DNA of 64,000 bases from Thermoplasmata archaeon (lineage in GTDB: Archaea; Thermoplasmatota; Thermoplasmata; Lutacidiplasmatales; UBA184). The stretch spans positions 23,869 to 87,868 of the forward strand of contig DAHUZZ010000006.1 in NCBI GenBank assembly GCA_027314915.1, written 5' to 3'. The notes beneath the pieces were generated by a model, which made no database searches, had not been told where the DNA came from, and saw only the letters and a program-made list of their open reading frames with translations. Made by a program: the position numbers and the translations under genes. Positions within the stretch are counted from its first letter, which is position 1; each line of letters starts with the position of its first letter. Below, piece after piece: positions 6,502 through 19,444 of this stretch.

Positions 6502-7286
6502 GCGAGGAGGTCACGGCCGAGATCCTGACGACCCACATCCTCGAGCTCGCCCAGGGCGGCAAGCGGCTCGACGGCCGGGCGGTCGACGAGTACCGGCCCG
6601 TCACGATCCAGTTCGGGTACGTGGCGAGCGCCGACGGGAGCGCGCTCGTGCGGCTCGGCAACACCACGGTCCTCTCCGGGATCAAGCTCGAGCCCGGCAA
6701 GCCGTTCCCCGACACGCCCAACGCGGGCGTGCTCACCACCAACGCGGAGCTGATCCCGCTCTCCTCGCCCACCTTCGAGCCCGGACCGCCGCACCCGAGG
6801 GCCATCGAGGTCTCGCGTGTCGTGGACCGGGCGATCCGGGCCGCCGAGGCGGTCGACCTGACCGGGCTCTGCGTCACCCCGGGGGAGAAGTGCTGGACCT
6901 GCTTCGTCGACATCCACGTGCTCGACCACTCGGGCAACCTGATCGACGCCTCCATGCTCGCGGCCGTCTCCGCGCTCTCGCGCGCGACGCTGCCGGGCAA
7001 GCGGTTCGAGATCGGGGAGGACGCCCCGCTCAACATCCGGCACCTGCCCATCGAGACCACCTTCTGCCGGCTCGGGGAGACCATCGTCGTCGACCCGACC
7101 TTCGAGGAGGAGACGGCCGCCCAGGGGCGGGTCACCATCGCGACGGACGAGATCGGCAACGTCGTCGCCATGCAGAAGGGGCTCGTCGGCGCCTTCGCGC
7201 CGGAGGAAGTGAAGCAGCTGGTCGACCGGGCGTTCCGCCACGGCGACCGCCTGCGCGAGCAGATCCGCCGCGGGGGAGGCCCATGA
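6498..7286 (+). CDS. rrp42: Exosome complex component Rrp42
   Basis: RLDGRAVDEYRP, PFPDTPNAG, FEPGPP, GNLIDA. ATGA overlap with rrp41. Confidence 0.96.
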   Translation: MSEEVTAEILTTHILELAQGGKRLDGRAVDEYRPVTIQFGYVASADGSALVRLGNTTVLSGIKLEPGKPFPDTPNAGVLTTNAELIPLSSPTFEPGPPHPRAIEVSRVVDRAIRAAEAVDLTGLCVTPGEKCWTCFVDIHVLDHSGNLIDASMLAAVSALSRATLPGKRFEIGEDAPLNIRHLPIETTFCRLGETIVVDPTFEEETAAQGRVTIATDEIGNVVAMQKGLVGAFAPEEVKQLVDRAFRHGDRLREQIRRGGGP

Positions 7287-7564
7287 GCAAGCGGACGAAG
7301 AAGGTCGGGTGCACCGGCTGGATGGGTCCCCGCTACGGGATCCGGATCCGCCGGAGGATCCTCGAGATCGACACGGTCAAGAGCGCCCGGTCGCGCTGTC
7401 CCAAGTGCGCGACCGTGACGGTGAAGCGCGTGGCGAGCGGCGTCTTCGAGTGCCACCGCTGCGGGCGGCGGTTCGCGAGCGGCGCCTACCAGTTCACCCC
7501 GGCGCCCCCCATCGTGCGCACGGAGCGGGCGGCCGAGCCCGCGGCGGCCCCCGGCAAGCGGTAG
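7283..7564 (+). CDS. rpl37ae: 50S ribosomal protein L37ae (eL43)
   Basis: MSKRTKKVG..GPRYG, C4 zinc ribbon (CPKC, CHRC), FASGAY. ATGA overlap with rrp42. Confidence 0.95.
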   Translation: MSKRTKKVGCTGWMGPRYGIRIRRRILEIDTVKSARSRCPKCATVTVKRVASGVFECHRCGRRFASGAYQFTPAPPIVRTERAAEPAAAPGKR

Positions 7565-7658
7565 GCCGGGGCGGATCGCGGGCGAGGCTTCTTCCTCCCC
7601 GGGGCCCTGGAGCCTCCGTGGCCGAGGAGACCGCGCGCCGGTCCCGGGCCCTCCGCCC

Positions 7659-8363
7659 GTGACCGCCCGGAGCCGGGACGAGGCGCTCGTCGAGCTCAAG
7701 CTGGAGGGGCCGCGGGTCCCCCACTGGCTCAACGACCTCGGGACCCGGTACGGGGCCGTCGTGAAGCTCCACGTCTGCCGGTCCACCGAGGACCGGCCGC
7801 GGAAGCTCGTCCGCCTCCTCGAGATCACCGCCGCCCCGGACCGGCTCGATGAGATCTCCACCTTCCTCGTGAGCAAGGCGGGCCGCGGCAACGTCGCGCA
7901 GACCCGGGTCGCCGCGCACCGGCTGATCGCCCGGCTGCGGACGCCGCTCCCGGCCATCTGCCAGTCGGTCTTCGACCTGGGGGCCATCTGCACGAGCTGC
8001 CCGTTCCTCGCCGAGGGCGACCCGGAGGAGACCGAGAGCTCCTGGGGGCTCCTGGTCCCCCGCGCGGCCGATGCCCGGCCGATGATCCGCGACCTCAAGG
8101 GCTCCGGCGGGAACCCGCCGCGCCTGATCCGGGTCGGGAAGTACCGCGGCCCGCCCGACCTCACCCCGCGCCAGGAGCTCGCGGTCCACCTCGCCCACCG
8201 GATGGGCTACTTCGAGACGCCCCGCCGGGCGGACCTCGACCAGCTGGCCCGGGCCCTCGGGGTGAGCCGGCCGACGGCGATGGAGATCCTCCGGCGCGGC
8301 CTGCAGAAGCTCGCCGAGCGCCACGCGACCGGGCCGGCGGCCACGCGCGCGCTCGGGGGCTAG
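7659..8363 (+). CDS. Bat-like (HTH_10) transcriptional regulator with a Cys-containing N-terminal domain
   Basis: C-terminal LTPRQ..A...GYFETPRRADL..LA..LGVS...EILRR is typical of the bacterio-opsin activator HTH. N-terminal ICQ...ICTSCPF. Confidence 0.8.
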   Translation: MTARSRDEALVELKLEGPRVPHWLNDLGTRYGAVVKLHVCRSTEDRPRKLVRLLEITAAPDRLDEISTFLVSKAGRGNVAQTRVAAHRLIARLRTPLPAICQSVFDLGAICTSCPFLAEGDPEETESSWGLLVPRAADARPMIRDLKGSGGNPPRLIRVGKYRGPPDLTPRQELAVHLAHRMGYFETPRRADLDQLARALGVSRPTAMEILRRGLQKLAERHATGPAATRALGG

Positions 8364-8367
8364 GCCG

Positions 8368-9414
8368 CTACCCCGGCACGACGACGGTCCGCAGGCCCCG
8401 GCCCTCCCGGAGCCGGTCCGCCGCTTCCCCGATCCGCTCGAGGGGGACCCGGCCGGAGACGATCTCGTCGACCCGGACGCGGCCGGACCGGACCAACTCG
8501 ATGACCCGGGGGTAGTCGACCGGCCGGCAGCCGAGCGAGCCGAGGACCGTGTACTCGAAGAACATGAGGCGGTTCATCGGGAGCGTCGCCGGCGCCTCGC
8601 CGTAGCCGACCACGCAGAGCCGGCCGCCCCGCCGGAGGGTCGAGAGCGCGAGGGAGAAGGTGCCGGGGCTCCCGACGGCGTCGAAGGCGACGTCCACCCC
8701 GCCGCCCGTCGCCCGCCGGATCCGCTTCGCGACCTCCGGTTCCCGCTCCGGGTTCAGCGCCTCCGTCGCGCCGAGCCGGGTCGCGAGCGCGAGCTTCTCA
8801 TCCTTCACATCGAGGGCGGTCACCAGGCCGCCCGCCACGGCGGCGAACTGGACCACGTTCATCCCCACCCCACCGCAGCCGACGACCGCGACCTGCTCGC
8901 CGGGCCGGACCCGGGCCCGCTCCACCACGGCATGGAAGGGGGTGGTGAGGGCGTCCGCGATCACGCAGCCGTTCACGAGGTCGATCGACGCGGGGAGCGC
9001 GACGAGGTCCTTCCCGGGGACCGCGACGTACTCCGCGTACCCGCCGTCGACGTGGTTGCCGACCATCCGCATCTCCGGGCAGATGTTCTCCCGCCCCGAC
9101 CGGCACCACGCGCACCGCCCGCACGGCAGGACCGCCGGCACCAGGACGGGATCGCCCGGGCTCCATCCGCCGGCGCCCTCCCCGACCTCCTTCACGCGGC
9201 CGGAGATCTCGTGGCCGAGGATCATCGGGGGCGGCTTCGCCGTCGGGACGTGGTGGTCGAGGTAGTGGAGGTCGGTGTGGCAGAAGCCGCAGGCGGCGAC
9301 CTCGACGAGCACCTCGCCGGGCCCCACGCGGGGGCGGTCCACCTCCTCGAGGACGAGCGGCCGGCCCGGGCCGTGGAAGACCGCGGCGCGCATCTTCCCC
9401 GGCCCCGCCACCAC
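8368..9414 (-). CDS. had: Zn-dependent alcohol dehydrogenase, probable 6-hydroxycyclohex-1-ene-1-carbonyl-CoA dehydrogenase
   Basis: CGFCHTD, GHE, structural Zn CGRCAWC..C and GCGGVG motifs. The specific call rests on its position in the BCR operon. Confidence 0.78.
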   Translation of the reverse strand: MVAGPGKMRAAVFHGPGRPLVLEEVDRPRVGPGEVLVEVAACGFCHTDLHYLDHHVPTAKPPPMILGHEISGRVKEVGEGAGGWSPGDPVLVPAVLPCGRCAWCRSGRENICPEMRMVGNHVDGGYAEYVAVPGKDLVALPASIDLVNGCVIADALTTPFHAVVERARVRPGEQVAVVGCGGVGMNVVQFAAVAGGLVTALDVKDEKLALATRLGATEALNPEREPEVAKRIRRATGGGVDVAFDAVGSPGTFSLALSTLRRGGRLCVVGYGEAPATLPMNRLMFFEYTVLGSLGCRPVDYPRVIELVRSGRVRVDEIVSGRVPLERIGEAADRLREGRGLRTVVVPG

Positions 9415-9415
9415 C

Positions 9416-10186
9416 CTACGCCTCCCTCCAGACCGGGCTCCGCTTCTCCAGGAAGGCGCGGAGCCCCTCCTCGGCGTCGGGGGAGGCCATGAGCTCCTCC
9501 CGGTACAGCCGCTCGGCGTGCGCGACGTGGGTCCAGGGGTCGGAGGTGGTGCGCCGGATCGCCCGCTTCATCAGCCGGAGCGTCTCCCGGCGGTAGCCGC
9601 AGATCGTCTGGGAGAGGAGCGCGACGGTCGCCGGGAGTTCGACGGCCGGCACCGCCCGGTTCACCACGCCCAGGGCGGCGGCCTGGGCCGCGCTCAGGGT
9701 GGCGCCGGTCATCATGAGCTCGAAGGCGGTCCGGCTCCCGAGCGCCTGCGGGTAGTAGGCGGCGGCGAACGGCGCGAAGACGCCGAGGCGGACCTCGGGC
9801 TGGGAGAAGGTCGCATCGTCCGCGGCGTAGGCCAGGTCGCAGGCCATGAGGAGCTCGAGGCCGCCGCCCAGGCAGCGGCCGTGGACCTCCGCGATCGTGG
9901 GCGCCGGCAGCTCCCAGAGCGCGTGGAGCGCCCGGTCGAACGCCCCGAGCATCGCGTCCACGCGGGGCGCGAGGTGGTCCCCGATCTCGAAGCCGGCGCT
10001 CCAGCCCTTGCCGAGCCCCCGGACGATGACGACCTTGGCCTCGCGGACCTCCCGGCGGTGGAGTGCCGTGGCGAGCTTCGTGAGCAGGTCGACGTCGAAG
10101 ATGTTGAGCGGGGGCCGTGACCACTCCACCGTGGCCCGGCCCTCGACGATCGCGACCTGGACCTCCCCGGGGGGACGCGTCGGCAT
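9416..10186 (-). CDS. dch: Crotonase-fold enzyme, probable cyclohexa-1,5-diene-1-carbonyl-CoA hydratase
   Basis: RPPLNIFD, WSAGFEI.DH, CLGGGLEL, QPEVRLGVFAP. Position in the BCR operon. Confidence 0.78.
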   Translation of the reverse strand: MPTRPPGEVQVAIVEGRATVEWSRPPLNIFDVDLLTKLATALHRREVREAKVVIVRGLGKGWSAGFEIGDHLAPRVDAMLGAFDRALHALWELPAPTIAEVHGRCLGGGLELLMACDLAYAADDATFSQPEVRLGVFAPFAAAYYPQALGSRTAFELMMTGATLSAAQAAALGVVNRAVPAVELPATVALLSQTICGYRRETLRLMKRAIRRTTSDPWTHVAHAERLYREELMASPDAEEGLRAFLEKRSPVWREA

Positions 10187-10195
10187 GGCCCCCCC

Positions 10196-11437
10196 TCAGT
10201 CGAAGAGCTGCGATTCCACGAACGTCTCGAGCTGGAGCCGGGCCTGCTCGTACGTCGTCGACCGCTCCTCGAACTCCATCTGCAGGTAGGGGATGTTCCG
10301 CTTCTCGAGGGCCCGGCGGTAGAGGACCACGTCCTCCAGGGCCGGCTCGCAGAACTTCGCCGTGAGGAACAGGACCCCCTGGGCCCCCGTCCGCTCCACC
10401 CGCGCGAGGATCCCCGCCTCCTTCGTGGTCGGGGTGGCCCGCACGCCGATGTCCACGGGGGCCTCGAGGTAGGCCCGCGCCAGGTTCTCGAGCGGGTCGC
10501 CCTCCGACGGCACGTCCCCGTACCAGCGGGACAGCATCTGGAACTCCTCGCCGACGACGGCGCAGCCGGACTCCTCCAGCAGCGAAAGGAGGTCGAGGGT
10601 CGGCTGCTCGCAGAAGGGCCCGACGACGACCACGCGGAGCGCGTCCCGCGGCTTCCGGTGCCGGGCCGTGAGCTCGGCGAGCGCCCGTTCAAGGAGCTCG
10701 ATGTGGAGCTCGCGGGGGAGCGTGCTCCCGAGCCGGGTGAGGAGGTACATCTCCACCAGCGAGAGGTCGGCCGGGCGCTCCCGGCGGAGATCGGCGAGCT
10801 CGCCCACGAGCCTCCGCTGCCGGTTGAACGTCGCGAGCGACGCCCGGAGATGTTCGGGGTCGTAGGCCCGGCCCGCGACCCGCTCGAGCTTCGCGAGGAG
10901 CCGCCGGTACTCGGCGATGAGGAACGGGAGCGTCGCCGCGGATCCGAAGTTCTGGGGGAGATGCAGCATGTGGGTCATCTTCCCCGGGAGGCTCCGGGCG
11001 AAGATCCCCTCGAGGTTGCGGCTCACGTCGCAGATGTAGGGGAAGACGAAGCCCTCGAAGGCGTCGAGGCGTCCGGTGAGCGCCATCTCGAGCGTCGACT
11101 TGCTGATGGAGCAGAGGAAGGAGCCGAGGAGCGCATCGGCGTGGGTGATCTCGAGGTTCTCCCCGCCGCCCTGGACGGTCACCGGCAGCATCCCGAGCGC
11201 GTGGATCAGTTCCTGCGGCGTGTAGACCGGGAACGTGGCGACGGAGCGGCCCCCGGCGCGCTTCCAGGCGCGCGCGACCGGGAAGGTGGGGTCCCCGAGG
11301 ACCTCGCCCGCGAGGCGCACCATCTCGGCAACGCCGGCGGCCGAGCGGAACTCGGCGAGGTCGTTGGAGAGCTCGAGGGAGGGGGCGGCCGGCTCCTCCT
11401 CCGTCCGCTCGCCGATCGTGAGGAGCGGCGCGGCCAT
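10196..11437 (-). CDS. bcrC: Benzoyl-CoA reductase subunit C (BcrC/BzdN-like, HGD-D family)
   Basis: PVYTPQELIHA.G, SFLCSI, PYICDVSRNL, GPFCEQP, AKFCEPAL, LETFVES. Start at the ATG at 11437. Confidence 0.82.
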   Translation of the reverse strand: MAAPLLTIGERTEEEPAAPSLELSNDLAEFRSAAGVAEMVRLAGEVLGDPTFPVARAWKRAGGRSVATFPVYTPQELIHALGMLPVTVQGGGENLEITHADALLGSFLCSISKSTLEMALTGRLDAFEGFVFPYICDVSRNLEGIFARSLPGKMTHMLHLPQNFGSAATLPFLIAEYRRLLAKLERVAGRAYDPEHLRASLATFNRQRRLVGELADLRRERPADLSLVEMYLLTRLGSTLPRELHIELLERALAELTARHRKPRDALRVVVVGPFCEQPTLDLLSLLEESGCAVVGEEFQMLSRWYGDVPSEGDPLENLARAYLEAPVDIGVRATPTTKEAGILARVERTGAQGVLFLTAKFCEPALEDVVLYRRALEKRNIPYLQMEFEERSTTYEQARLQLETFVESQLFD

Positions 11438-11439
11438 CG

Positions 11440-12255
11440 CTAGGCCACCGCCGCCGACGGGGAGACGCCCTGCTCGATCCGGAGCTTCCGGGCCCGGCCC
11501 AGCATCGCGCTCCCGAGGGCCGCCGCGTAGTGGCCCTGCGGGGAGACGTTCACCGGGCACCCGATCGTCTGCGAGAGCGCGCGGACCATCCCCGGGTTGT
11601 GGACGAGCCCGCCCACCAGGGTGACCTCCGGCGCGATCCCGACGTAGCGCATCAGCGCGTGGGAGCGCTGGGCGAGGGAGAGGAAGATGCCCATGAGCAT
11701 GTCCGGGAGCGGGACCCCCTCGGCGACGTTGTTGATGATCTCCGTCTCGGCGAGCACGGCGCAGACGCTCGAGATGAGCCGGGGGTGCTCGGCGTCGAGC
11801 GCCTTGGGGCCCATCGCCCCGATGGGCACCTGCAGGTACTTCGAGCAGCGTTCGACGAACCGGCCGGCGCCGGCCGCGCACTTCTCGTTCATCTTGAACC
11901 GGGTCACCTTCCCGGTCTCGGTGACGGCCAGGGCGCGGGAGGACTGGGCGCCGATGTCGACCACGTGCCGGGTCCCGGGGAAGAGGAAGACCGCGCCGCG
12001 TCCGGAGGAGGTGATGTCGCTCACCTGGAGGTCGCGCTCGGGAAGGCCGCTCCGTCCGAAGCCCGTCGTGCAGACGTAGTCGATGTCGCCGGTGAGGACG
12101 TTCCCCTCCTCGCCCAGCACCTCGAGGACCCGGCGCGCGGCGGCCGCCGGGTTCCCCCGGGTGGGCTCGATCGCCGTGCCCAGGATGCGGCGGCCGTCCT
12201 CGAGGAGGACGCCCTTCGTCGAGCTCGAGCCCACGTCGAGGCCGCAGGTGATCAT
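11440..12255 (-). CDS. bcrD: Benzoyl-CoA reductase ATP-binding activase subunit (BcrD/BzdP-like)
   Basis: ASKHA motifs GLDVGSSSTK and VVDIGAQ, plus cluster Cys in MNEKCAAGAG and SVCAVLAETE. Confidence 0.8.
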   Translation of the reverse strand: MITCGLDVGSSSTKGVLLEDGRRILGTAIEPTRGNPAAAARRVLEVLGEEGNVLTGDIDYVCTTGFGRSGLPERDLQVSDITSSGRGAVFLFPGTRHVVDIGAQSSRALAVTETGKVTRFKMNEKCAAGAGRFVERCSKYLQVPIGAMGPKALDAEHPRLISSVCAVLAETEIINNVAEGVPLPDMLMGIFLSLAQRSHALMRYVGIAPEVTLVGGLVHNPGMVRALSQTIGCPVNVSPQGHYAAALGSAMLGRARKLRIEQGVSPSAAVA

Positions 12256-13043
12256 GCGGCCGCCCCCTCGCACCGGGCCTGGCCGGCCAGCGCGGCCCCG
12301 AGGGCGCCCATGAACTGGGAGAGCGGGCTCACGTTCACCGGGGCGCCGAGCCGCCGGCGCAGCGCGAGGACCATCCCCTCGTTCCGCGAGACCCCGCCGG
12401 TGAAGGTGACCTCGGGCTCGATCCCCACGCGCTGCATGAGCGAGAGGCTCCGGCTCACGATGCTCGCGTGGAGGCCGGCGAGGATGTCCTTCGGCTCCTT
12501 CCCCCGGGAGACGAAGGAGGTGACCTCCGACTCCGCGAAGACGGTGCAGGTGCTCGTCACCTTGAGCGGGTGGCGCGCCTGGAGGGAGAGGGGGCCGATC
12601 TCCCCGATGTCGAAGCCCAGGGCGTTCGCGCAGACCTCGAGGAAACGGCCGGTCCCGGCGGCGCACTTGTCGTTCATGGCGAAGTCGATGACCTCGCCGG
12701 AGGAGCCGACCCGGATCGCCTTCGTGTCCTGGCCCCCGATGTCGAGGACGAGCCGGGTGCCCGGGAAGAGGAAGTGCGCCCCCCGGGCGTGGCAGGAGAT
12801 CTCCGTGACCGTGAGCTGGCCGAAGTACACCTTGTAGCGTCCGTAGCCGGTCCCGGCGATGAACGCCGCCTCGGAGCGCTCGCGCCGCGCGTCCCGGAGG
12901 GCGAGCTCGAGCGCGACCTCGGCGTCCTTCACGATGTCCACGCCGACCGGGCTCAGGGACTTCCCGACGATCTCCTTCCCCTCGAGGAGGACGCACTTCG
13001 CCGTCGTCGAACCGATGTCCATGCCCGCGACGAGCGCGCTCAT
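12252..13043 (-). CDS. bcrA: Benzoyl-CoA reductase ATP-binding activase subunit (short BcrA/BzdQ-like)
   Basis: GMDIGSTTAK, GTGYGR, EISCHARGA, LDIGGQD, MNDKCAAGTGRF, STCTVFAESE. Confidence 0.8.
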   Translation of the reverse strand: MSALVAGMDIGSTTAKCVLLEGKEIVGKSLSPVGVDIVKDAEVALELALRDARRERSEAAFIAGTGYGRYKVYFGQLTVTEISCHARGAHFLFPGTRLVLDIGGQDTKAIRVGSSGEVIDFAMNDKCAAGTGRFLEVCANALGFDIGEIGPLSLQARHPLKVTSTCTVFAESEVTSFVSRGKEPKDILAGLHASIVSRSLSLMQRVGIEPEVTFTGGVSRNEGMVLALRRRLGAPVNVSPLSQFMGALGAALAGQARCEGAAA

Positions 13044-14335
13044 GCGGCGACCTCCGTGGCCGGCGCCTTCGTCGTCCGGCGCTGGTCGAGGGACTCGAAG
13101 AACGCGTCCATCCGGTTCTTGATCTGGGCCGGGGCGAAGTAGCGGGGGTCCTGGTGGTCCGACTCGATGTACAGCGTCGGGACCCCCTGGTCGTGGATGA
13201 GCCAGTCCCGGAGGTCGCCCTGGCCCGCCGTGAAGGAGCGGCACGACTTGATCCCGTGGATCACGACCGCGTCGACGGAGTACTCGCGCAGGTACTCCTG
13301 GATCAGCTTCCGCCGGAGCGTCCAGGACTGGTTCACGTAGGCGCCAAGGCTGTACTCGGCGATGCTCTCGAAGGGCCGGGCGGGGTCGTGGAGGAACCCC
13401 CGGTCGAAGAGCCCCCCGACCTTGGGGTACGTCGCGACCACCGAGACCGCCCCCCACTTCCGGAAGAAGTCCCAGAAGGTCCGGTAGTTGGTGTACGGCG
13501 GGACCCCCTCCACCAGGACCCGGACCTTCTCCTCGGGCAGCGGGAGGTTGCCCTCCCGGACCCTCCGCTCGACCTCGGCGTTCACGACGTCGTAGAAGTC
13601 GGCGGCCTGGGCCGTGCCGCGCAGCACGTTGATCGGGAACATGTAGAAGATCGCCTCGAAGTAGGCCTCGATGGGCGACGGCCGGAGCCGTCCCGCGCGC
13701 AGGTAGCGGGCCCATCCCTCCTCGGCGCGCCGGGTCTCGCGCAGGACCCGCTTGAGCTCCTCCATGTCGAACGCGCGGCCGGTGCGCTTCTCGAGCTGGT
13801 GGACGAACTCCCAGAGCTGGGCGACCATGTACTGGATGTCCTCCTTGTACGGGACCTCCTCGCGCAGGTACGGCACGTCGTAGGTGAACATCGGCGCGCC
13901 GTAGCTCTCGGCGAGCGCCTCCCACCACTTCACGTAGACATAGCAGCCGGAGAAGCTGCAGACGAGCAGGTCGGGCCGCGGGATCCGGCCGAAGGGCGTG
14001 GAGCCTCCCAGGTCCTGGAGCCCGAGGTCGTTCTTCACGTAGCCGCAGACGTCGAGCCCGTAGCCCATCGCCTCGGCGTGCAGGATGTTCTCGAGCGAGC
14101 GGTGCTTGATGGCGCAGTTGAGGGCGACGATCTCGGGGAAGACGACCTCGTAGCCGAACGACCGGACGATCTCGGTCAGGTTCCCGCCGACGAGCATGTA
14201 GGCGACGGGTCGCTGGGGGCCGCCCGCCTCCGCGAGACCGCGGTAGTACTCCTCCACCAGGCGTCGCTGGAGCTCGCGCCCGGAGTCCAGGAAGTCGCCC
14301 TCGCGCGGGGGCGCGGCCCCGGCGGCCCCGGTCAC
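13040..14335 (-). CDS. bcrB: Benzoyl-CoA reductase subunit B (BcrB/BzdO-like, HGD-D family)
   Basis: DVCGYVKND, PRPDLLVCSFSGC..Y.KW, IKSCRSF, LYIESDHQDPR, NRMDAFFESL. GTG start overlaps the oah stop (GTGA). Confidence 0.82.
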   Translation of the reverse strand: MTGAAGAAPPREGDFLDSGRELQRRLVEEYYRGLAEAGGPQRPVAYMLVGGNLTEIVRSFGYEVVFPEIVALNCAIKHRSLENILHAEAMGYGLDVCGYVKNDLGLQDLGGSTPFGRIPRPDLLVCSFSGCYVYVKWWEALAESYGAPMFTYDVPYLREEVPYKEDIQYMVAQLWEFVHQLEKRTGRAFDMEELKRVLRETRRAEEGWARYLRAGRLRPSPIEAYFEAIFYMFPINVLRGTAQAADFYDVVNAEVERRVREGNLPLPEEKVRVLVEGVPPYTNYRTFWDFFRKWGAVSVVATYPKVGGLFDRGFLHDPARPFESIAEYSLGAYVNQSWTLRRKLIQEYLREYSVDAVVIHGIKSCRSFTAGQGDLRDWLIHDQGVPTLYIESDHQDPRYFAPAQIKNRMDAFFESLDQRRTTKAPATEVAA

Positions 14336-15447
14336 GGGGACCTCCGCGCGCCGCCCCCGTGGACCGAGGCGCCGCACCGGCCGCAGAAGTCGAACGCGGC
14401 GGGGAGCCCGATCGTGCCGCACTTCGGGCAGCTCCGGGCGGGCGGCCCGAACCGGAACTCCGGGCTCTCCCCGCGGGCGAGCTGCGCCCGGATCTCGCGC
14501 GTCCGGGCCGGTCGCTTCTCGACGAACGCGCGCATCCCCTCGAACGGTTCGGCGGTCGCGAAGTGGAGCGCGAGCCACTCCTGGGCGTGCCCGGCGGTCT
14601 GGCTCCAGACGAGCTCCTTCCAGAAGTTGGTCTGCTCCTTGGTGTACCGCAGGCACTCCGGGAACATCCCGAGCAGCCGCTCGGCGAGCGACGCGACGGC
14701 GGCGTCGAGGGGGCGGAGATCGATCGCATACTCCTCCTTCCCGCGCCCCGCGAGCTCGACCTCCCGGTCCGAGGGGACCGCGATGAGATCGCCCTGGTGG
14801 CGGATCGACGGCGCGACCTCGGAGACGAGCCCCCACTCGAGGGCCCGCGCGGCCGGGATCCGCTCGTTGAGGAAGAGCATCCGCCGGGCGCGACGGTCGC
14901 CCACGGCGAGGGTGAGCCACTGGGTCGCCCCGCCGGCCGCGACGGAACCGACCCCGACCCCCACCTGGCCGATGTAGACGTGGCTGGCCGCGACGGAGAG
15001 GTCGCAGGCGAGGTGGAGCTCGTTCCCGCCGCCGACGGTGATCCCGTTCAGCCGCGCGATGGTGGGCTTCCCGCACCGCAGCAGCGCGTCGACGGCGTCC
15101 CGGAAGAGCGCCATGTACTTCCAGTAGTCGTGCGGGCGCTGGGTGTAGCGGGAGGCGTACTCCTTCACGTCCCCGCCCGTGCAGAACGCGCGGGTGCCGG
15201 TGCCCGTGAGCACGATCACGCCGACGGAGTCATCGCAGGAGGCGTCCCGGACCGCCTGCGCGAGCTCCTTGAGCGTGTGGGTCGAGTAGGAGTTGAGCGC
15301 CCCGGGCCGGTCGAGGGCGATGGTGGCCACGCCCGCGAGCTTCGTGTAGCGGAGCTCCCGGAACTTGAGCGCCGGGGCGGGCGCGAATTCGTCGGGGGAT
15401 TCGTCGGCGGCCCGCTCGGCGGATACCGGGGCGACGCTCCGGCTCAT
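14332..15447 (-). CDS. oah: 6-oxocyclohex-1-ene-1-carbonyl-CoA hydrolase (Oah/BamA-like) with a C-terminal C4 zinc ribbon
   Basis: Crotonase motifs AFCTGGDVKEY, GGGNEL, VGSVAAGGATQWL, FPECLRYTK, plus CPKC..CGRC tail. An alternative GTG start lies at 15462. Confidence 0.82.
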   Translation of the reverse strand: MSRSVAPVSAERAADESPDEFAPAPALKFRELRYTKLAGVATIALDRPGALNSYSTHTLKELAQAVRDASCDDSVGVIVLTGTGTRAFCTGGDVKEYASRYTQRPHDYWKYMALFRDAVDALLRCGKPTIARLNGITVGGGNELHLACDLSVAASHVYIGQVGVGVGSVAAGGATQWLTLAVGDRRARRMLFLNERIPAARALEWGLVSEVAPSIRHQGDLIAVPSDREVELAGRGKEEYAIDLRPLDAAVASLAERLLGMFPECLRYTKEQTNFWKELVWSQTAGHAQEWLALHFATAEPFEGMRAFVEKRPARTREIRAQLARGESPEFRFGPPARSCPKCGTIGLPAAFDFCGRCGASVHGGGARRSP

Positions 15448-15533
15448 GGCAGCAGGGCCCACGCAGGGCCCGCGGATTCTGCTGTCCCCTAACCGGTGAG
15501 GGACGCACGGACGGGAGCCGCCCGTTCCCCCGC

Positions 15534-15911
15534 CTACCCCGACCGGAGGCCGGGCGCATCGGGGGAGGCGTCGGACCGCCGGACGGGGGCCGGGGGCCGA
15601 TCGGCCGGGGGCACCGGCCGCAGCTGCTCGAGCGCCCGCACCTTGCCTTCTTCCACGATCTGCCGCAGGACCCTCCAGCAGAACTCGGGGTCGAGCCCCA
15701 GCTCCCGGGCCCGGACGTAGGTGCGGAGCCGCAACGCCGCCTCCTGGTTCGGGTCGACGAGCTCGAGCCCGTGGGCCTGCTTGATCTCCCAGAGGACCGC
15801 CACCAACCGGAGGCGCCGTTCGACGAGCTCGAGGAGCGCGCGGTCGAGCTCGCTGATCTGGGTCCGCACGGAGCGCAGCTCCGCGGGAAGGATCGGCGGC
15901 GAAGAGGTCAC
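15534..15911 (-). CDS. AroQ (type II) chorismate-mutase-like protein
   Basis: LRSVRTQISELDRALLELVERR...EIKQAHG..VDP.QE matches the AroQ helix pattern, but some active-site residues differ. Confidence 0.72.
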   Translation of the reverse strand: MTSSPPILPAELRSVRTQISELDRALLELVERRLRLVAVLWEIKQAHGLELVDPNQEAALRLRTYVRARELGLDPEFCWRVLRQIVEEGKVRALEQLRPVPPADRPPAPVRRSDASPDAPGLRSG

Positions 15912-15997
15912 GTCCCCGGCAGGGGCCGAGCGACTTGGCGTGGACCCCTCACCCGTTAGGGAGGGGAGTTAGGAGCCCCCGACCCCCTCGCGAGGGC

Positions 15998-17173
15998 GTG
16001 GAGCTGGTTCTCGCCTCGAACTTCGACGATGAGCTGGTCCGGAGGACCTCGGAGCTGCCGGTCTCCACGTTCTTCGGGGGGTTCCCCTTCTCGCTGGTCG
16101 GCGGCGGGCGGCCGCCCCGCATCCTCCCGAAGATCGAGGACGATGGCTTCCGCCGGCACGTCGAGGCGGTCCACCGCGCGGGGCGGAAGTTCATCGCCAC
16201 GGTGAACTCCTCGGACCTCGGGCTCCAGGAGTACCGCGAGGGATTCCTCGCCCGGTTCAAGGCCGAGATGGCCCACCTGCTCGAGCTGGGCGTGGACGGC
16301 TTTGTCGTCGCCCTGCCGATCCTCATCCAGACGATCCACGAGGAGTGGCCCGACGTGCCGATCTCCGTCTCCACCTTCGCCCGGATCCGTACGGTGAACC
16401 AGGGGGTCTACTTCCTCCGGCTCGGGGCCTCGACGCTGGTCCTCGAGGAGGCGAACCGGGACTTCGGCCTCATCCGAGGCCTCCGGAACGCGGGGGCCGA
16501 GGTCGAGATCCTGACCAACCAGACCTGCGTGCGCGACTGTCCGTACCGGGCCCACCACCTGAACACGAGCTCGCTCGCCTCCCAGCCCGGGAGCACCGCG
16601 GTCCCGTTCGAGCTCCCGATCCTCCAGTGCGGACTCGAGATGGTCCGGGACCCCACGAAGCTGATCTCGTCGATCTGGGTACGACCGGAGGACCTCGAGG
16701 CGTACGAGGACGTCGGGGTCACCCGGTTCAAGATCTCGGGGCGGAACCGTACGACGGACTGGCTGGTCCGGGTCGCCGAGGCCTATGCGGCGCGGCGCTA
16801 CGAGGGGAACCTCCTCGACATCCTGAGCTTCGTGCAGGTGAAGGGCCCGCTCGCGGCGCTCCAGACGATCGAGCGCGATCCCGCGGCCCGCGACGTGGCG
16901 GGCCGGTTCCGCCGCGCCTACGACTCCCTGTCGCGCGTCACCATCGACAATTCGGCGTTCCCCGCCGGGTTCCTCCGCCGCATCGCCTCGAGCGACTGCC
17001 TGCACCGCTCCTGCGAGGAGTGCGGGTACTGTCCGTCCGTGGCGGAGCGCGTCCTCCGGATCGACGGGGTGCCCCCGTCGAAGTATCGGCCGAACCTCGA
17101 TCCGGGACCGCTGGGGCCGCTCCTCGAACGGATCGGGCGCCCCGCGCCCCCGGACGGGGCGCTGCCGCCGTGA
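15998..17173 (+). CDS. Peptidase U32 family Fe-S protein (UbiU/UbiV/TrhP/RlhA superfamily)
   Basis: TIM-barrel segments (ISVSTFARI, EILTNQTC, FKISGR), Cys cluster CVRDCP..H..C and C-terminal CxxxxCxxCxxC. Start placed at the GTG at 15998. Confidence 0.75.
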   Translation: MELVLASNFDDELVRRTSELPVSTFFGGFPFSLVGGGRPPRILPKIEDDGFRRHVEAVHRAGRKFIATVNSSDLGLQEYREGFLARFKAEMAHLLELGVDGFVVALPILIQTIHEEWPDVPISVSTFARIRTVNQGVYFLRLGASTLVLEEANRDFGLIRGLRNAGAEVEILTNQTCVRDCPYRAHHLNTSSLASQPGSTAVPFELPILQCGLEMVRDPTKLISSIWVRPEDLEAYEDVGVTRFKISGRNRTTDWLVRVAEAYAARRYEGNLLDILSFVQVKGPLAALQTIERDPAARDVAGRFRRAYDSLSRVTIDNSAFPAGFLRRIASSDCLHRSCEECGYCPSVAERVLRIDGVPPSKYRPNLDPGPLGPLLERIGRPAPPDGALPP

Positions 17174-17258
17174 TCTCCCCGGCCCCCGGAGCCCGGGCCC
17201 GCCACCGGCGGGTCTTATCGGCCCGGCCGCGTGCGGGGGGACCGGAGGTGGCCGGTCC

Positions 17259-18083
17259 GTGACCGTCAGGTTCGACCGGGACGGCCCGATCGCGATCCTC
17301 ACGCTCGATCGGCCGTCGGCGCTGAACGCGATCGACCCCGAGACCCATGCGCAGCTCCTCGAGGCCTGGGGACGGTTCCGGGACGACGAGGGCCTGCGGG
17401 TCGCGATCCTTCGGGGGGCCGGCGACCGGGCCTTCAGCGCCGGCATCGACCTCAAGCGGCTCCCGGAGTTCTACGCGGAGCTCTACCCGGGCGAGCGCCG
17501 GGAGCGCTGGCAGCGCTCCCCCGGGCTCGCCGGCCTCACCCGGAACTTCGAGGTGGGTAAGCCGGTGATCGCCTCGATCCAGGGCTACTGCCTCGGTCTG
17601 GGCCTCGAGCTGGCGCTCGCCTGCGACCTCCGGATCGCGAGCGAGGAGGCCACCTTCGGCCTGCCCGAGGTGCGCTGGGGGATCATCCCCGGCCAGGGCG
17701 GAACCCAGCGCCTGCCCCGGACGATCCCCCTCGGGGCCGCGCTCGAGATGATCCTCACCGCCGGCCCCATCGACGCCCCCCGCGCCCTCGCCCTCGGGCT
17801 CGTGAACCGGGTCGTCCGCCGCGCCCGACTCGACACCGAGGCCCGCGCCCTCGCCTCCCGCATCGCCGAGCACCCGCCCCGGGCCGTCCGTCAGGCCCGC
17901 GAAGCGGTGCGTCGCGGACTCGAGCTGCCGCTGGTCGACGGCCTCCGGCTCGAGCAGGACCTGGCCGACGCGCTGCGGGGCGCGGCCGAGGGCGCCCGCG
18001 TGGGCGCCAAGTTCTCGGTCCGCCCCCCGCGCCGGGGCCGCCGCCGGTCGGCCTCGCGGGGCCGTTCCCGAGCTTCCCCCTAG
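17259..18083 (+). CDS. Enoyl-CoA hydratase/isomerase
   Basis: LDRPSALNAI, AFSAGIDL, CLGLGLELALACDLR, PEVRWGIIPGQGGTQRLPR. Confidence 0.9.
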   Translation: MTVRFDRDGPIAILTLDRPSALNAIDPETHAQLLEAWGRFRDDEGLRVAILRGAGDRAFSAGIDLKRLPEFYAELYPGERRERWQRSPGLAGLTRNFEVGKPVIASIQGYCLGLGLELALACDLRIASEEATFGLPEVRWGIIPGQGGTQRLPRTIPLGAALEMILTAGPIDAPRALALGLVNRVVRRARLDTEARALASRIAEHPPRAVRQAREAVRRGLELPLVDGLRLEQDLADALRGAAEGARVGAKFSVRPPRRGRRRSASRGRSRASP

Positions 18084-18150
18084 CACGCGCCCGGGGCGTC
18101 GGGAGGTCGACCCCCCCAAGCGTTATGCGGGGTCATTCGGTCCGGCCGGC

Positions 18151-18285
18151 ATGTTCCGGTGCATTCGCTGCGGGGAGGCGCTCCCGAGCGACGCGAACCT
18201 GTTCGGCGTCCGCTGCGATAACTGCGGCGGGAAGATCTTCACGAAGGAGCACCCCAACGTGAAGAAGGTCCTCAAGGCCCGGTAG
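18151..18285 (+). CDS. rpoP: DNA-directed RNA polymerase subunit P (Rpo12)
   Basis: Translated by hand as MFRCIRCGEALPSDANLFGVRCDNCGGKIFTKEHPNVKKVLKAR (44 aa), with the CxxC..RCxxCGxKIFxK pattern. Too short for the ORF track. Confidence 0.9.
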   Translation: MFRCIRCGEALPSDANLFGVRCDNCGGKIFTKEHPNVKKVLKAR

Positions 18286-18328: not shown

Positions 18329-19444
18329 TTGTTTCGGGTCCCCTTTCGTACCGCGGACCCGCCGTACCCCCCGGGGGTCGCCGTGCGCGCCACCGGGGTC
18401 CGTACCGAGGACCACCGGTCGTGGCTGCCCCGGCCTCCCGCGCTCGCCCGGAACCTTCCGTGGATCCTCCTCATCCTTCTCTCCATCAGCTTCGCGGAAC
18501 TGCTCACGGGCTCCACGCCGGTCCCGGCCCTCGTTCTCGACCCGCTGAGCGGGGTCTTCCTGGTCGGACTGTACGGGGCCGGGGTCCTCCTCGTTCGCGA
18601 GGCGGGGGTCCGGTGGGCGAAGGGCTGGCCCTCGATCCTCCTGCTCGGGGTGGCGTACGGGATCTCGGAGGAGGGGCTCGGAACGAAGACCTTCTTCGGT
18701 CCGAAGGGGGTCGGGTATCTCGCGACCTACGGGCACGCCCTCGGTGTGAACTGGGTAGGGGCGACCGAGCTCGCCCTCTTCCAAGCCCTCTTCAGCATCG
18801 CCCTGCCCATCGCGGTGGTGGGGCTCGTCTTCCCCGCCCCGGCGCGATCGCCGTGGCTCACGAGCCGCCGGTCGCTCGGGTTCGTCCTGGGCGCGTTCGT
18901 GGCCACCGTCGCGGCCATGTTCGTCCTGGTCAACCCCTCGGAGGACCCCGGGCTTCCGCTCGTGGCCACCGCGCTCGCGCTCCTCGCGGCCCTCGGGGTC
19001 CTGGCGCGGCTCGTCCCCGCGACCCTCGGCGACCCCCGGGCGACCGGACCGGACCGTGGGGTCCGAGGGTACCGGGCGGTCCTCGTCGGAGCGACCTTCG
19101 TCTGGGGGTTCTTCGGGCTCTCCTGGATCGGACCCCGCGGGATCCCGTACCCGGCGCTCACGGCGGGGGCCATCGCCGCCTGGACGATCGGCTTCGGCGC
19201 GGCGCTCTACGCGGACCGGGCGTCGTGGGCGGCGCCGGGCGCGCAGCTCGGGTTCATCTCGGGAGCGCTCTCCTTCCCGCTCACCCTCGCCCTCGCGGGG
19301 GCCCTCCTGGGGGACCCGGCGGTACTGGTCGTGGTGGGAGCGGTGGTGCTCCTCCTGGTCGATCTCCACCGCGCGGGGGAGCGGACGGGGATCCGGTACG
19401 GGGCGCGCGCCCCCGCCCCGGGCGGTCGGGGGGCGCCGCGGTAG
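18329..19444 (+). CDS. Polytopic membrane protein of unknown function
   Basis: About 9-10 hydrophobic helices; AELLTGS, LYGAGVLL.RE and YGISEEGL motifs. Start is uncertain. Confidence 0.7.
   Translation: MFRVPFRTADPPYPPGVAVRATGVRTEDHRSWLPRPPALARNLPWILLILLSISFAELLTGSTPVPALVLDPLSGVFLVGLYGAGVLLVREAGVRWAKGWPSILLLGVAYGISEEGLGTKTFFGPKGVGYLATYGHALGVNWVGATELALFQALFSIALPIAVVGLVFPAPARSPWLTSRRSLGFVLGAFVATVAAMFVLVNPSEDPGLPLVATALALLAALGVLARLVPATLGDPRATGPDRGVRGYRAVLVGATFVWGFFGLSWIGPRGIPYPALTAGAIAAWTIGFGAALYADRASWAAPGAQLGFISGALSFPLTLALAGALLGDPAVLVVVGAVVLLLVDLHRAGERTGIRYGARAPAPGGRGAPR

Follow-up and report, generated by a model that had tools for sequence, protein, structure and literature searches.

A chorismate mutase gene paired with a divergent U32-fold gene in a predicted archaeal benzoyl-CoA reductase regulon: a candidate prephenate-supplied oxidase or hydroxylase

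This study concerns two divergent genes, one for an AroQ-class chorismate mutase (CM)-like protein and one for a U32-fold protein, in a 64,000-nucleotide stretch of contig DAHUZZ010000006.1 (assembly GCA_027314915.1, Thermoplasmata archaeon) that we call the window. Comparisons across related genomes suggest that the two proteins, together with an HTH_10 transcription regulator, form a three-part module in which a U32-type iron-sulphur (Fe-S) oxidase or hydroxylase is supplied with prephenate by its own CM, and that the module belongs to the regulon of a class I benzoyl-CoA reductase (BCR; bcr genes). Our confidence in this reading is slightly above even. The source genome (G000; 1.85 Mb, 84% complete) contains a single U32 match and a single CM_2 match, which are the pair in the window. 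The comparisons drew on a family sample of 121 genomes from the same GTDB family as the source and on a class sample of 151 genomes. The features at the centre of the argument are as follows.

15488 to 15501: operator-like palindrome CCTAACCGGTGAGG, 26 nt upstream of the start of oah
15534 to 15911, minus strand: AroQ-class chorismate mutase-like gene, 125 amino acids (Pfam CM_2, 6.4e-15, 55.6 bits against a cut-off of 27)
15947 to 15960: operator-like palindrome CCTCACCCGTTAGG, in the middle of the CM/U32 intergenic region, 38 nt from the U32 start and 36 nt from the CM start
15998 to 17173, plus strand: gene for a divergent U32-fold protein, 391 amino acids (Pfam Peptidase_U32, alignment, AlphaFold2 model, hhalign and tree)

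This layout, coordinates and Pfam families alike, agrees with a preliminary description made from the window alone, in which an AroQ-like gene and a U32 gene diverge across 86 nt and the former is co-oriented with, and just upstream of, an oah-bcr operon. The spacing between the CM gene and oah is 71 nt, and the order of genes that follows is oah, bcrB, bcrA, bcrD, bcrC, dch, had. The U32 gene is taken to start at 15998 and not at the start of the longest open reading frame (ORF), 15935, because its homologues begin with MELVLA.

The pairing of the two genes is conserved beyond the source genome. In the family sample a divergent CM_2 gene lies 125-150 bp from 48 of the 58 full-length U32 copies, and chance adjacency was rejected on the strength of this synteny survey. 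Some of the unpaired U32 copies have a degenerate, sub-threshold CM-like ORF (L005, for example). The pair occurs both with and without bcr genes nearby and turns up in otherwise unrelated neighbourhoods (heme genes, Nramp), usually accompanied by an HTH_10 regulator. The module is organised differently in genus g3 (G050, G185, G190 and G072), where the CM_2 gene is not adjacent to U32.

The significance of the pairing lies in how little else in this family appears to make prephenate. Chorismate synthase is present in 117 of the 121 family genomes, AroH-type CM in none and prephenate dehydratase (PDT) in a single one, and any AroQ CM at all was found in just 12 of the 59 family genomes that lack U32. 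For these reasons the CM looks like a dedicated source of prephenate, and a housekeeping CM was considered and rejected. One extra AroQ copy that was inspected is a fusion of CM to TyrA (prephenate dehydrogenase), and the other extra copies lie in similarly long frames. Searches of the source genome by tblastn with E. coli proteins found no PheA, TyrA or MenF/TrpE/PabB-type enzyme, and the PheA, TyrA, MenF, MenD, Ubi and Cmo queries revealed no further enzyme using chorismate or prephenate. In this prephenate-poor lineage the presence of the CM thus follows that of U32, as would be expected if the U32 enzyme needs prephenate. Such a need has precedents, since prephenate is the oxygen donor for UbiU/V (PMC10990095), and both TrhP (tRNA ho5U34) and RlhA (23S rRNA ho5C2501) require it (PMC6599085, PMC5727448). 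The CM of the window keeps the equivalents of EcCM R11, R28, K39, D48 and E52 as R16, R33, K44, D53 and E57. Taken together, the genome comparisons support the view that CM and U32 have been kept as a functional pair and that the lineage has no other prephenate branch.

The second member of the pair is a distant relative of the characterised U32 proteins. It scores 42.2 bits against Pfam Peptidase_U32 (PF01136; cut-off 22.4) in a match that covers only positions 4-66 of the 233 in the profile, and hhalign aligns its residues 44-175 with E. coli TrhP (97.7%) and UbiU (89%). The AlphaFold2 model of the protein has a mean predicted local distance difference test score (pLDDT) of 92.7, and its top Foldseek match in the PDB is the U32 protein MK0906 (5D88; E 2.2e-10, TM 0.74 on the target), which is also the sole match of a PDB sequence search (E=0.0066). 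An alignment of 30 homologues reaching from Thermoplasmata to Clostridia bears out the earlier remark that the gene is Cys-rich: C177, C181, H187, C211 and C334-x4-C339-x2-C342-x2-C345 are invariant throughout, and the seven Cys with His187 could between them supply two metal or Fe-S sites.

A profile search at E<=1e-30 yielded 988 clusters (50% identity) of this U32 clade, and the named members are annotated as 'collagenase-like PrtC family protease' or 'U32 family peptidase'. The same annotations are what the idea of a true collagenase-like U32 peptidase has in its favour; the names are, however, propagated from the family name only, and no catalytic mechanism is known for U32 peptidase activity (PMC5727448). 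Moreover, this is a cytoplasmic protein with seven invariant Cys, and its gene is strictly paired with that of a chorismate mutase. We find a peptidase scarcely credible, and the 'collagenase-like peptidase' label on the approximately 990 clusters of the clade is probably wrong.

A second alternative is that the protein hydroxylates tRNA or rRNA in the manner of TrhP and RlhA, in which case the bcr neighbourhood would be functionally meaningless. Among the four U32 proteins that have been characterised, two do act on RNA (PMC5727448, PMC6599085), and TrhP is the best match of the window protein both by hhalign and in NCBIfam, although at 25.9 bits the NCBIfam match falls short of the cut-off of 534. 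The maximum-likelihood tree places the protein elsewhere. The 30 family members are split from E. coli TrhP, RlhA, UbiU and UbiV with 100/100 support on a branch of 5.87 substitutions per site, so that the protein stands outside every characterised U32 clade. Pfam detected neither DUF3656 nor another RNA-binding extension in it, and tblastn of the source genome gave no match to CmoA, full-length CmoB or TrhO. The distribution of the gene points the same way: it is present in only 11 of the 151 class genomes (7%), nearly all of them within this one family, and in 62 of the 121 family genomes, which marks it as accessory and not housekeeping. The preliminary description had named a housekeeping RNA hydroxylase of the TrhP/RlhA clade as an outcome that would refute its proposal; phylogeny and distribution do not bear out that outcome.

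More distant homologues also speak against an RNA substrate. They occur in Sulfolobales and in one Thermoplasmata genome of 30% GC, with 38-42% identity and the same seven invariant Cys, and in bacteria with 25-33% identity, where the neighbours are nonribosomal peptide synthetase (NRPS), ketosynthase, methyltransferase or radical SAM genes. These contexts suggest small-molecule rather than RNA substrates. The CM_2 domains that these genomes do have are located elsewhere and lie in long open frames, which suggests fusions. An operator motif that is common to the U32 gene and bcr and is conserved across unlinked loci, as described below, is likewise hard to reconcile with an RNA hydroxylase, and we consider that explanation very unlikely.

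Several of the bacterial arrangements are recorded here in their own right. In Clostridia (L032, L035, L037, L038, L039) the U32-like gene directly follows a 2338-aa NRPS-reductase gene, and in Desulfobulbaceae and relatives (L019-L031) its neighbours code for methyltransferases, ketosynthases and radical SAM proteins, so that the bacterial members of the clade may act in the tailoring of natural products or lipids. An Elusimicrobia metagenome-assembled genome (L020:8805-11170) has two U32-like paralogues in tandem, an arrangement reminiscent of the UbiU/UbiV heterodimer.

The link between the CM-U32 pair and benzoyl-CoA reductase begins with the genes around the pair in the window.

7283 to 7564, plus strand: rpl37ae, recognised from its translation; left flank of the inserted block
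7659 to 8363, plus strand: HTH_10 transcription regulator (Pfam HTH_10, 1.2e-17, 63.9 bits against a cut-off of 23.1), candidate regulator of the module
8368 to 9414, minus strand: had-like zinc alcohol dehydrogenase of the 6-hydroxycyclohex-1-ene-1-carbonyl-CoA dehydrogenase type (best NCBIfam TIGR03201, 254.6 bits, below the equivalog cut-off of 338.65)
9416 to 10186, minus strand: dch-like dienoyl-CoA hydratase (best NCBIfam TIGR03189, 147.8 bits, below the cut-off)
10196 to 11437, minus strand: bcrC-like subunit of class I benzoyl-CoA reductase (TIGR02263, 282 bits, 5.5e-84)
11440 to 12255, minus strand: bcrD-like ATPase subunit (TIGR00241, 190.9 bits, above the cut-off; TIGR02261, 6.8e-46)
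12252 to 13043, minus strand: bcrA-like ATPase subunit (TIGR00241, 268 bits; TIGR02259, 1.5e-58)
13040 to 14335 (start approximate), minus strand: bcrB-like subunit (TIGR02260, 324 bits, 9.2e-97)
14332 to 15462, minus strand: gene for an oah-like ring-opening hydrolase that has a zinc ribbon at its C-terminus; the bcr operon starts with this gene (TIGR03200, 2e-60; Pfam ECH_1 and DZR)
17259 to 18083, plus strand: crotonase/enoyl-CoA hydratase (ECH), inside the inserted block (Pfam ECH_1, 3e-55)
18151 to 18285, plus strand: rpoP, recognised from its translation; right flank of the inserted block

All seven bcr-pathway genes have the corresponding TIGRFAM as their best match (1e-43 to 1e-97) with scores below the equivalog cut-offs, and the two Bcr ATPase subunits exceed the cut-off of the CoA_E_activ domain. 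The linkage of AroQ, U32 and bcr that had been noted in this one window recurs in the neighbourhood survey, and four independent lines appear to tie U32 to bcr: co-occurrence, adjacency, a shared island and a common operator motif. As to the first, 46 of the family genomes have both U32 and bcrB, 16 have U32 alone, 6 have bcrB alone and 53 have neither, which gives an odds ratio of 25 without phylogenetic correction; computed in the same way, the odds ratio within genus g2 is 18 (p=1e-8), and within g1 plus g68 the association has p=1e-3. The bcrB matches in genus g3 are only 43-44% identical and represent a different paralogue or enzyme.

Adjacency of U32 and bcr takes at least three arrangements across genomes. 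Five genomes have U32, hemerythrin and oah-bcr-dch-had in that order and co-oriented, in another five the bcr cluster ends about 6 kb away on the CM side, and the third arrangement is the inverted order seen in the window. The hemerythrin (HHE) gene that stands between U32 and oah in relatives (L003:11430-12020; also L002, L004, L007) is preceded by the operator motif; the block in the window is without it.

The island is a 10.6-kb block (window 7565-18150) comprising the regulator, bcr, CM, U32 and ECH genes, which interrupts the exosome superoperon between its rpl37ae and rpoP genes. In six congeneric genomes rpl37ae and rpoP are only 28-65 bp apart and the block is absent. The uninterrupted junction in these congeners indicates that regulator, bcr, CM, U32 and ECH entered as one unit. 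The ECH gene 3′ of U32, whose presence the preliminary description had also reported, has no counterpart downstream of U32 in the relatives covered by the synteny comparison, and ECH was for that reason rejected as part of the conserved CM-U32 module.

The fourth line came from aligning the CM/U32 intergenic regions, which revealed a conserved 14-nt palindrome. In the window this motif, CC-N2-ACC(G/C)GT-N2-GG, is found at two sites, before oah and in the middle of the CM/U32 region. Relatives have it at the same place in their CM/U32 intergenic region, and L002, L003, L068, L073, L075, L077, L079, L080 and L082 also have it upstream of oah. Physical linkage is not needed for this sharing: in G062, G132, G269, G244, G201 and G037, where U32/CM and bcr are on different contigs, the motif occupies the same promoter positions in both, and in G187, which has bcr only, it is again upstream of oah. 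The strict form, CC-N2-ACCGGT-N2-GG, occurs 10 times in the 1.85-Mb source genome (0.54 per 100 kb). The loci of relatives, 327 kb in total, contain 31 sites, of which about 29 are in promoters of U32/CM, hemerythrin, oah or HTH_10; there is none in the six empty-site (rpl37ae-rpoP) loci. A few other copies in the source genome also look promoter-like, each as a single site. One of them (contig C10:35356) precedes by 45 nt a lumazine/riboflavin-synthase-like gene, after which comes a gene for a 2x[4Fe-4S] ferredoxin, and it may mark a further member of the regulon.

A candidate for the protein that recognises the palindrome is the HTH_10 regulator, whose orthologues adjoin CM/U32 in relatives. 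The CM-linked orthologues share four conserved Cys in the N-terminal part (C40, C101, C111 and C114 in the numbering of the window protein), which suggests a metal or redox sensor. This N-terminal domain has no Pfam match, and its AlphaFold2 model (pLDDT 83) has no PDB match at E<=0.001. The HTH_10 protein, a member of the Bat-type family, probably binds the palindrome.

In the reading that we favour, the AroQ CM would turn chorismate into prephenate, a compound of which its lineage makes essentially none by other means. The U32-like enzyme would take prephenate as oxygen donor, as has been proposed for UbiU/V, TrhP and RlhA, and would hydroxylate an aromatic small molecule without O2; two electrons would leave via Cys-bound clusters, phenylpyruvate and CO2 would be released, and the phenylpyruvate could be transaminated to Phe in these PDT-less cells. 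Through the common operator CC-N2-ACCGGT-N2-GG the CM-U32 module and the bcr operon would belong to one small regulon, and from membership in the same predicted regulon it would follow that CM-U32 is expressed together with anaerobic ring reduction. The CM activity, Fe-S binding, prephenate use, hydroxylation, kind of substrate and motif-binding protein in this scheme are ones that we infer from sequence comparison.

Because prephenate is costly and would be consumed one-for-one, a low-flux role is to be expected, with a cofactor, an electron carrier or a minor substrate as the target and not bulk catabolism. The same reasoning of ours bears on the earlier suggestion that the phenylpyruvate by-product could feed the benzoyl-CoA route. 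If the hydroxylation lies on the path from phenylpyruvate to benzoyl-CoA, every by-product molecule entering that path demands another prephenate, and the suggestion fails on stoichiometry since the books cannot balance. We think it quite unlikely that CM-U32 is a catabolic, prephenate-driven, O2-independent hydroxylase that funnels or activates an aromatic compound into the benzoyl-CoA pathway under the same Cys-containing HTH_10 regulator as bcr. The candidate reaction for such a role would be benzylic or ring C-H hydroxylation, which is done by molybdenum enzymes in other anaerobes.

An explanation that needs no second substrate is a non-canonical phenylalanine branch, in which the U32-fold enzyme would decarboxylate and dehydrate prephenate to phenylpyruvate in place of PDT. 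It would account for the absence of PDT from 120 of the 121 family genomes in the presence of chorismate synthase and for the joint appearance and disappearance of CM and U32, and phenylpyruvate is in any case the proposed by-product of U32 chemistry (PMC10990095). However, half of the family is without the pair and equally without PDT, so that the family would as a rule be auxotrophic for Phe or use another route. The seven invariant Cys also suggest electron transfer over a simple dehydratase, and a Phe branch leaves the common operator, the co-occurrence and the co-insertion with bcr unexplained. We regard it as distinctly improbable.

Closer to the reading that we favour is an O2-independent hydroxylase for a cofactor or quinone that is needed in anoxic conditions only. 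The enzyme would be an archaeal counterpart of UbiU/V, and its connection to bcr would run solely via the anoxia-induced regulon of a facultative organism. There is a precedent in the UbiUVT system of facultative anaerobes (10.1101/587956). The four conserved Cys of the regulator would suit a redox or O2 sensor, the hemerythrin gene belongs to the same operator-motif set in relatives, U32 and bcr are each found alone, and the cost of prephenate favours low-flux use. Against this, tblastn of the source genome with E. coli Men and Ubi proteins found no benzoquinone-type pathway, that is, no Men genes, UbiA, UbiH, UbiI, UbiT, UbiU or UbiV, the futalosine pathway not having been searched for; the only matches were UbiD/UbiX, which probably belong to the archaeal mevalonate pathway, and a generic UbiE-like methyltransferase. 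The operator-like motif, moreover, has 10-17 sites genome-wide, as for a small local regulon and not a global anaerobic one. An anoxia-only hydroxylase of this kind is possible, though on balance we judge it unlikely.

Several observations weigh against a prephenate-supplied oxidase or hydroxylase in the bcr regulon. In the U32-linked CM clade the equivalents of EcCM S84/Q88 are replaced by an invariant EGK, and the CM of the window falls below every NCBIfam equivalog cut-off, the best being TIGR01791 with 54.2 bits against 66.95. In the U32 protein the homology to characterised U32 proteins detected by hhalign is restricted to residues 44-175, and the branch that parts its family from the characterised U32 hydroxylases is very long. 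A four-Cys motif, CX6CX15CX3/4C, binds the [4Fe-4S] cluster of U32 hydroxylases (PMC11574389; 10.1101/587956). This canonical motif was not found in the family alignment, which has instead CX3C...C and a C-terminal CX4CX2CX2C, and only the first Cys of the family is aligned by hhalign near a canonical position. No adjacent CM was seen beside the distant homologues in the Sulfolobales and bacterial neighbourhoods that were examined. The statistics of U32-bcrB co-occurrence take no account of phylogeny, and the association has exceptions in both directions: among the 16 genomes with U32 and no bcr are some with few contigs (G240, G250, G255), and the 6 with bcr and no U32 include G187 (5 contigs, 91% completeness). 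Since each occurs alone in some fairly complete genomes, the U32 enzyme is not an obligatory component of BCR. Of the dedicated prephenate-supply and hydroxylase module linked to benzoyl-CoA metabolism that was proposed in the preliminary description, the pairing and the bcr link have held, and the proposal as a whole is partly supported.

Among known systems, UbiU-UbiV-UbiT, which carries out O2-independent ubiquinone hydroxylation in E. coli and Pseudomonas, resembles the module in the U32 TIM-barrel homology. Its U32 proteins are likewise Cys-rich and the window protein is presumably also an Fe-S protein; both systems are accessory in organisms facing anoxia, and for the window protein prephenate dependence would be a further likeness that we infer. 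In contrast to UbiUVT, the source genome has one U32 gene and no heterodimer partner, UbiT or ubiquinone pathway that tblastn could find, and the window U32 is archaeal, has another Cys pattern and its own CM gene, and has an operator motif in common with benzoyl-CoA reductase. TrhP and RlhA are the closest characterised relatives in sequence. The window protein differs from them in lacking the CX6C...C motif and DUF3656, in not being housekeeping and in having homologues in small-molecule contexts.

The best structural match, MK0906 of Methanopyrus kandleri, is a U32 structure whose function was not assigned. It consists of the barrel of about 250 residues only, whereas the window protein, which is 17% identical to it, adds a helical region and the C-terminal CX4CX2CX2C. 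Class I benzoyl-CoA reductase clusters of the Thauera bcrCBAD-dch-had-oah type contain the seven catabolic genes whose putative counterparts are in the window, and bcr genes have been reported in the Thermoplasmatota 'Ca. Yaplasmales' (PMC9239135). None of the described bcr clusters was found to have a CM or U32 gene, while the two units in the window share an operator motif.

The Sulfolobales homologues (L009-L017, L030, L042) and the one from the 30%-GC Thermoplasmata genome G140 (L069:6167-9014) are part of a triad of genes for a SPASM-type radical SAM protein, a U32-like protein and a metallo-beta-lactamase (MBL). The U32-like member belongs to the same clade as the window protein and has the same seven Cys, but its partners are different, there is no adjacent CM, and in Sulfolobales no bcr gene lies within 10 kb. 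Compared across the two archaeal phyla, the identity is 56% for the radical SAM proteins and 48% for the MBL proteins. The source genome has no orthologue of the triad radical SAM and only weak MBL matches.

The preliminary description knew of no described system with this architecture, and our literature search likewise found none. No paper in the literature library searched was found to combine U32 with benzoyl-CoA, and 'peptidase U32' and 'chorismate mutase' were combined only in the RlhA and TrhP studies. Nor did we find a description of this U32 clade, of its chorismate mutase partner in a prephenate-poor lineage or of an operator motif in common with benzoyl-CoA reductase. What is already known is prephenate-dependent U32 hydroxylation in bacteria (PMC10990095, PMC6599085, PMC5727448).

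A distant U32 clade that brings its own CM into a lineage without a prephenate branch amounts to a natural experiment, and the pairing would be independent genomic evidence for prephenate dependence beyond the four known clades and into the archaea. To our knowledge it is only recently that prephenate was recognised as an oxygen donor; the demonstrations are genetic, are confined to three bacterial processes and are not yet joined by an in vitro U32 assay. The CM-U32 pair offers a compact two-gene unit for expression and assay. How some C-H bonds are oxygenated without O2 in anaerobic aromatic metabolism is still debated, and the operator in common with benzoyl-CoA reductase would tie O2-independent oxidative chemistry to that metabolism. 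Were the catabolic role to prove true, the anaerobic degradation of aromatics would have its first organic oxygen donor, and the archaea their first U32 hydroxylase.

As for the wider setting, the source DNA has a GC content of about 72%, the locus is surrounded by exosome genes (rrp4, rrp41, rrp42) and those for SBDS, EF-2, S7, S12 and PolB, and the closest homologues carry the label Thermoplasmata archaeon. The C-terminus of the Oah-like hydrolase (window 14332-14440) is a double-zinc-ribbon-like extension, CPKC...CGRC (Pfam DZR 0.002); we know of no such zinc-ribbon extension in bacterial Oah. A hydrophobic 371-aa ORF with no Pfam match lies at 18329-19444, between rpoP and an MBL/RNase-J-like gene. 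The congeneric genomes gave no match to it; in five of their six loci rpoP and the MBL gene are separated by 60-215 bp, and the sixth has no MBL match.

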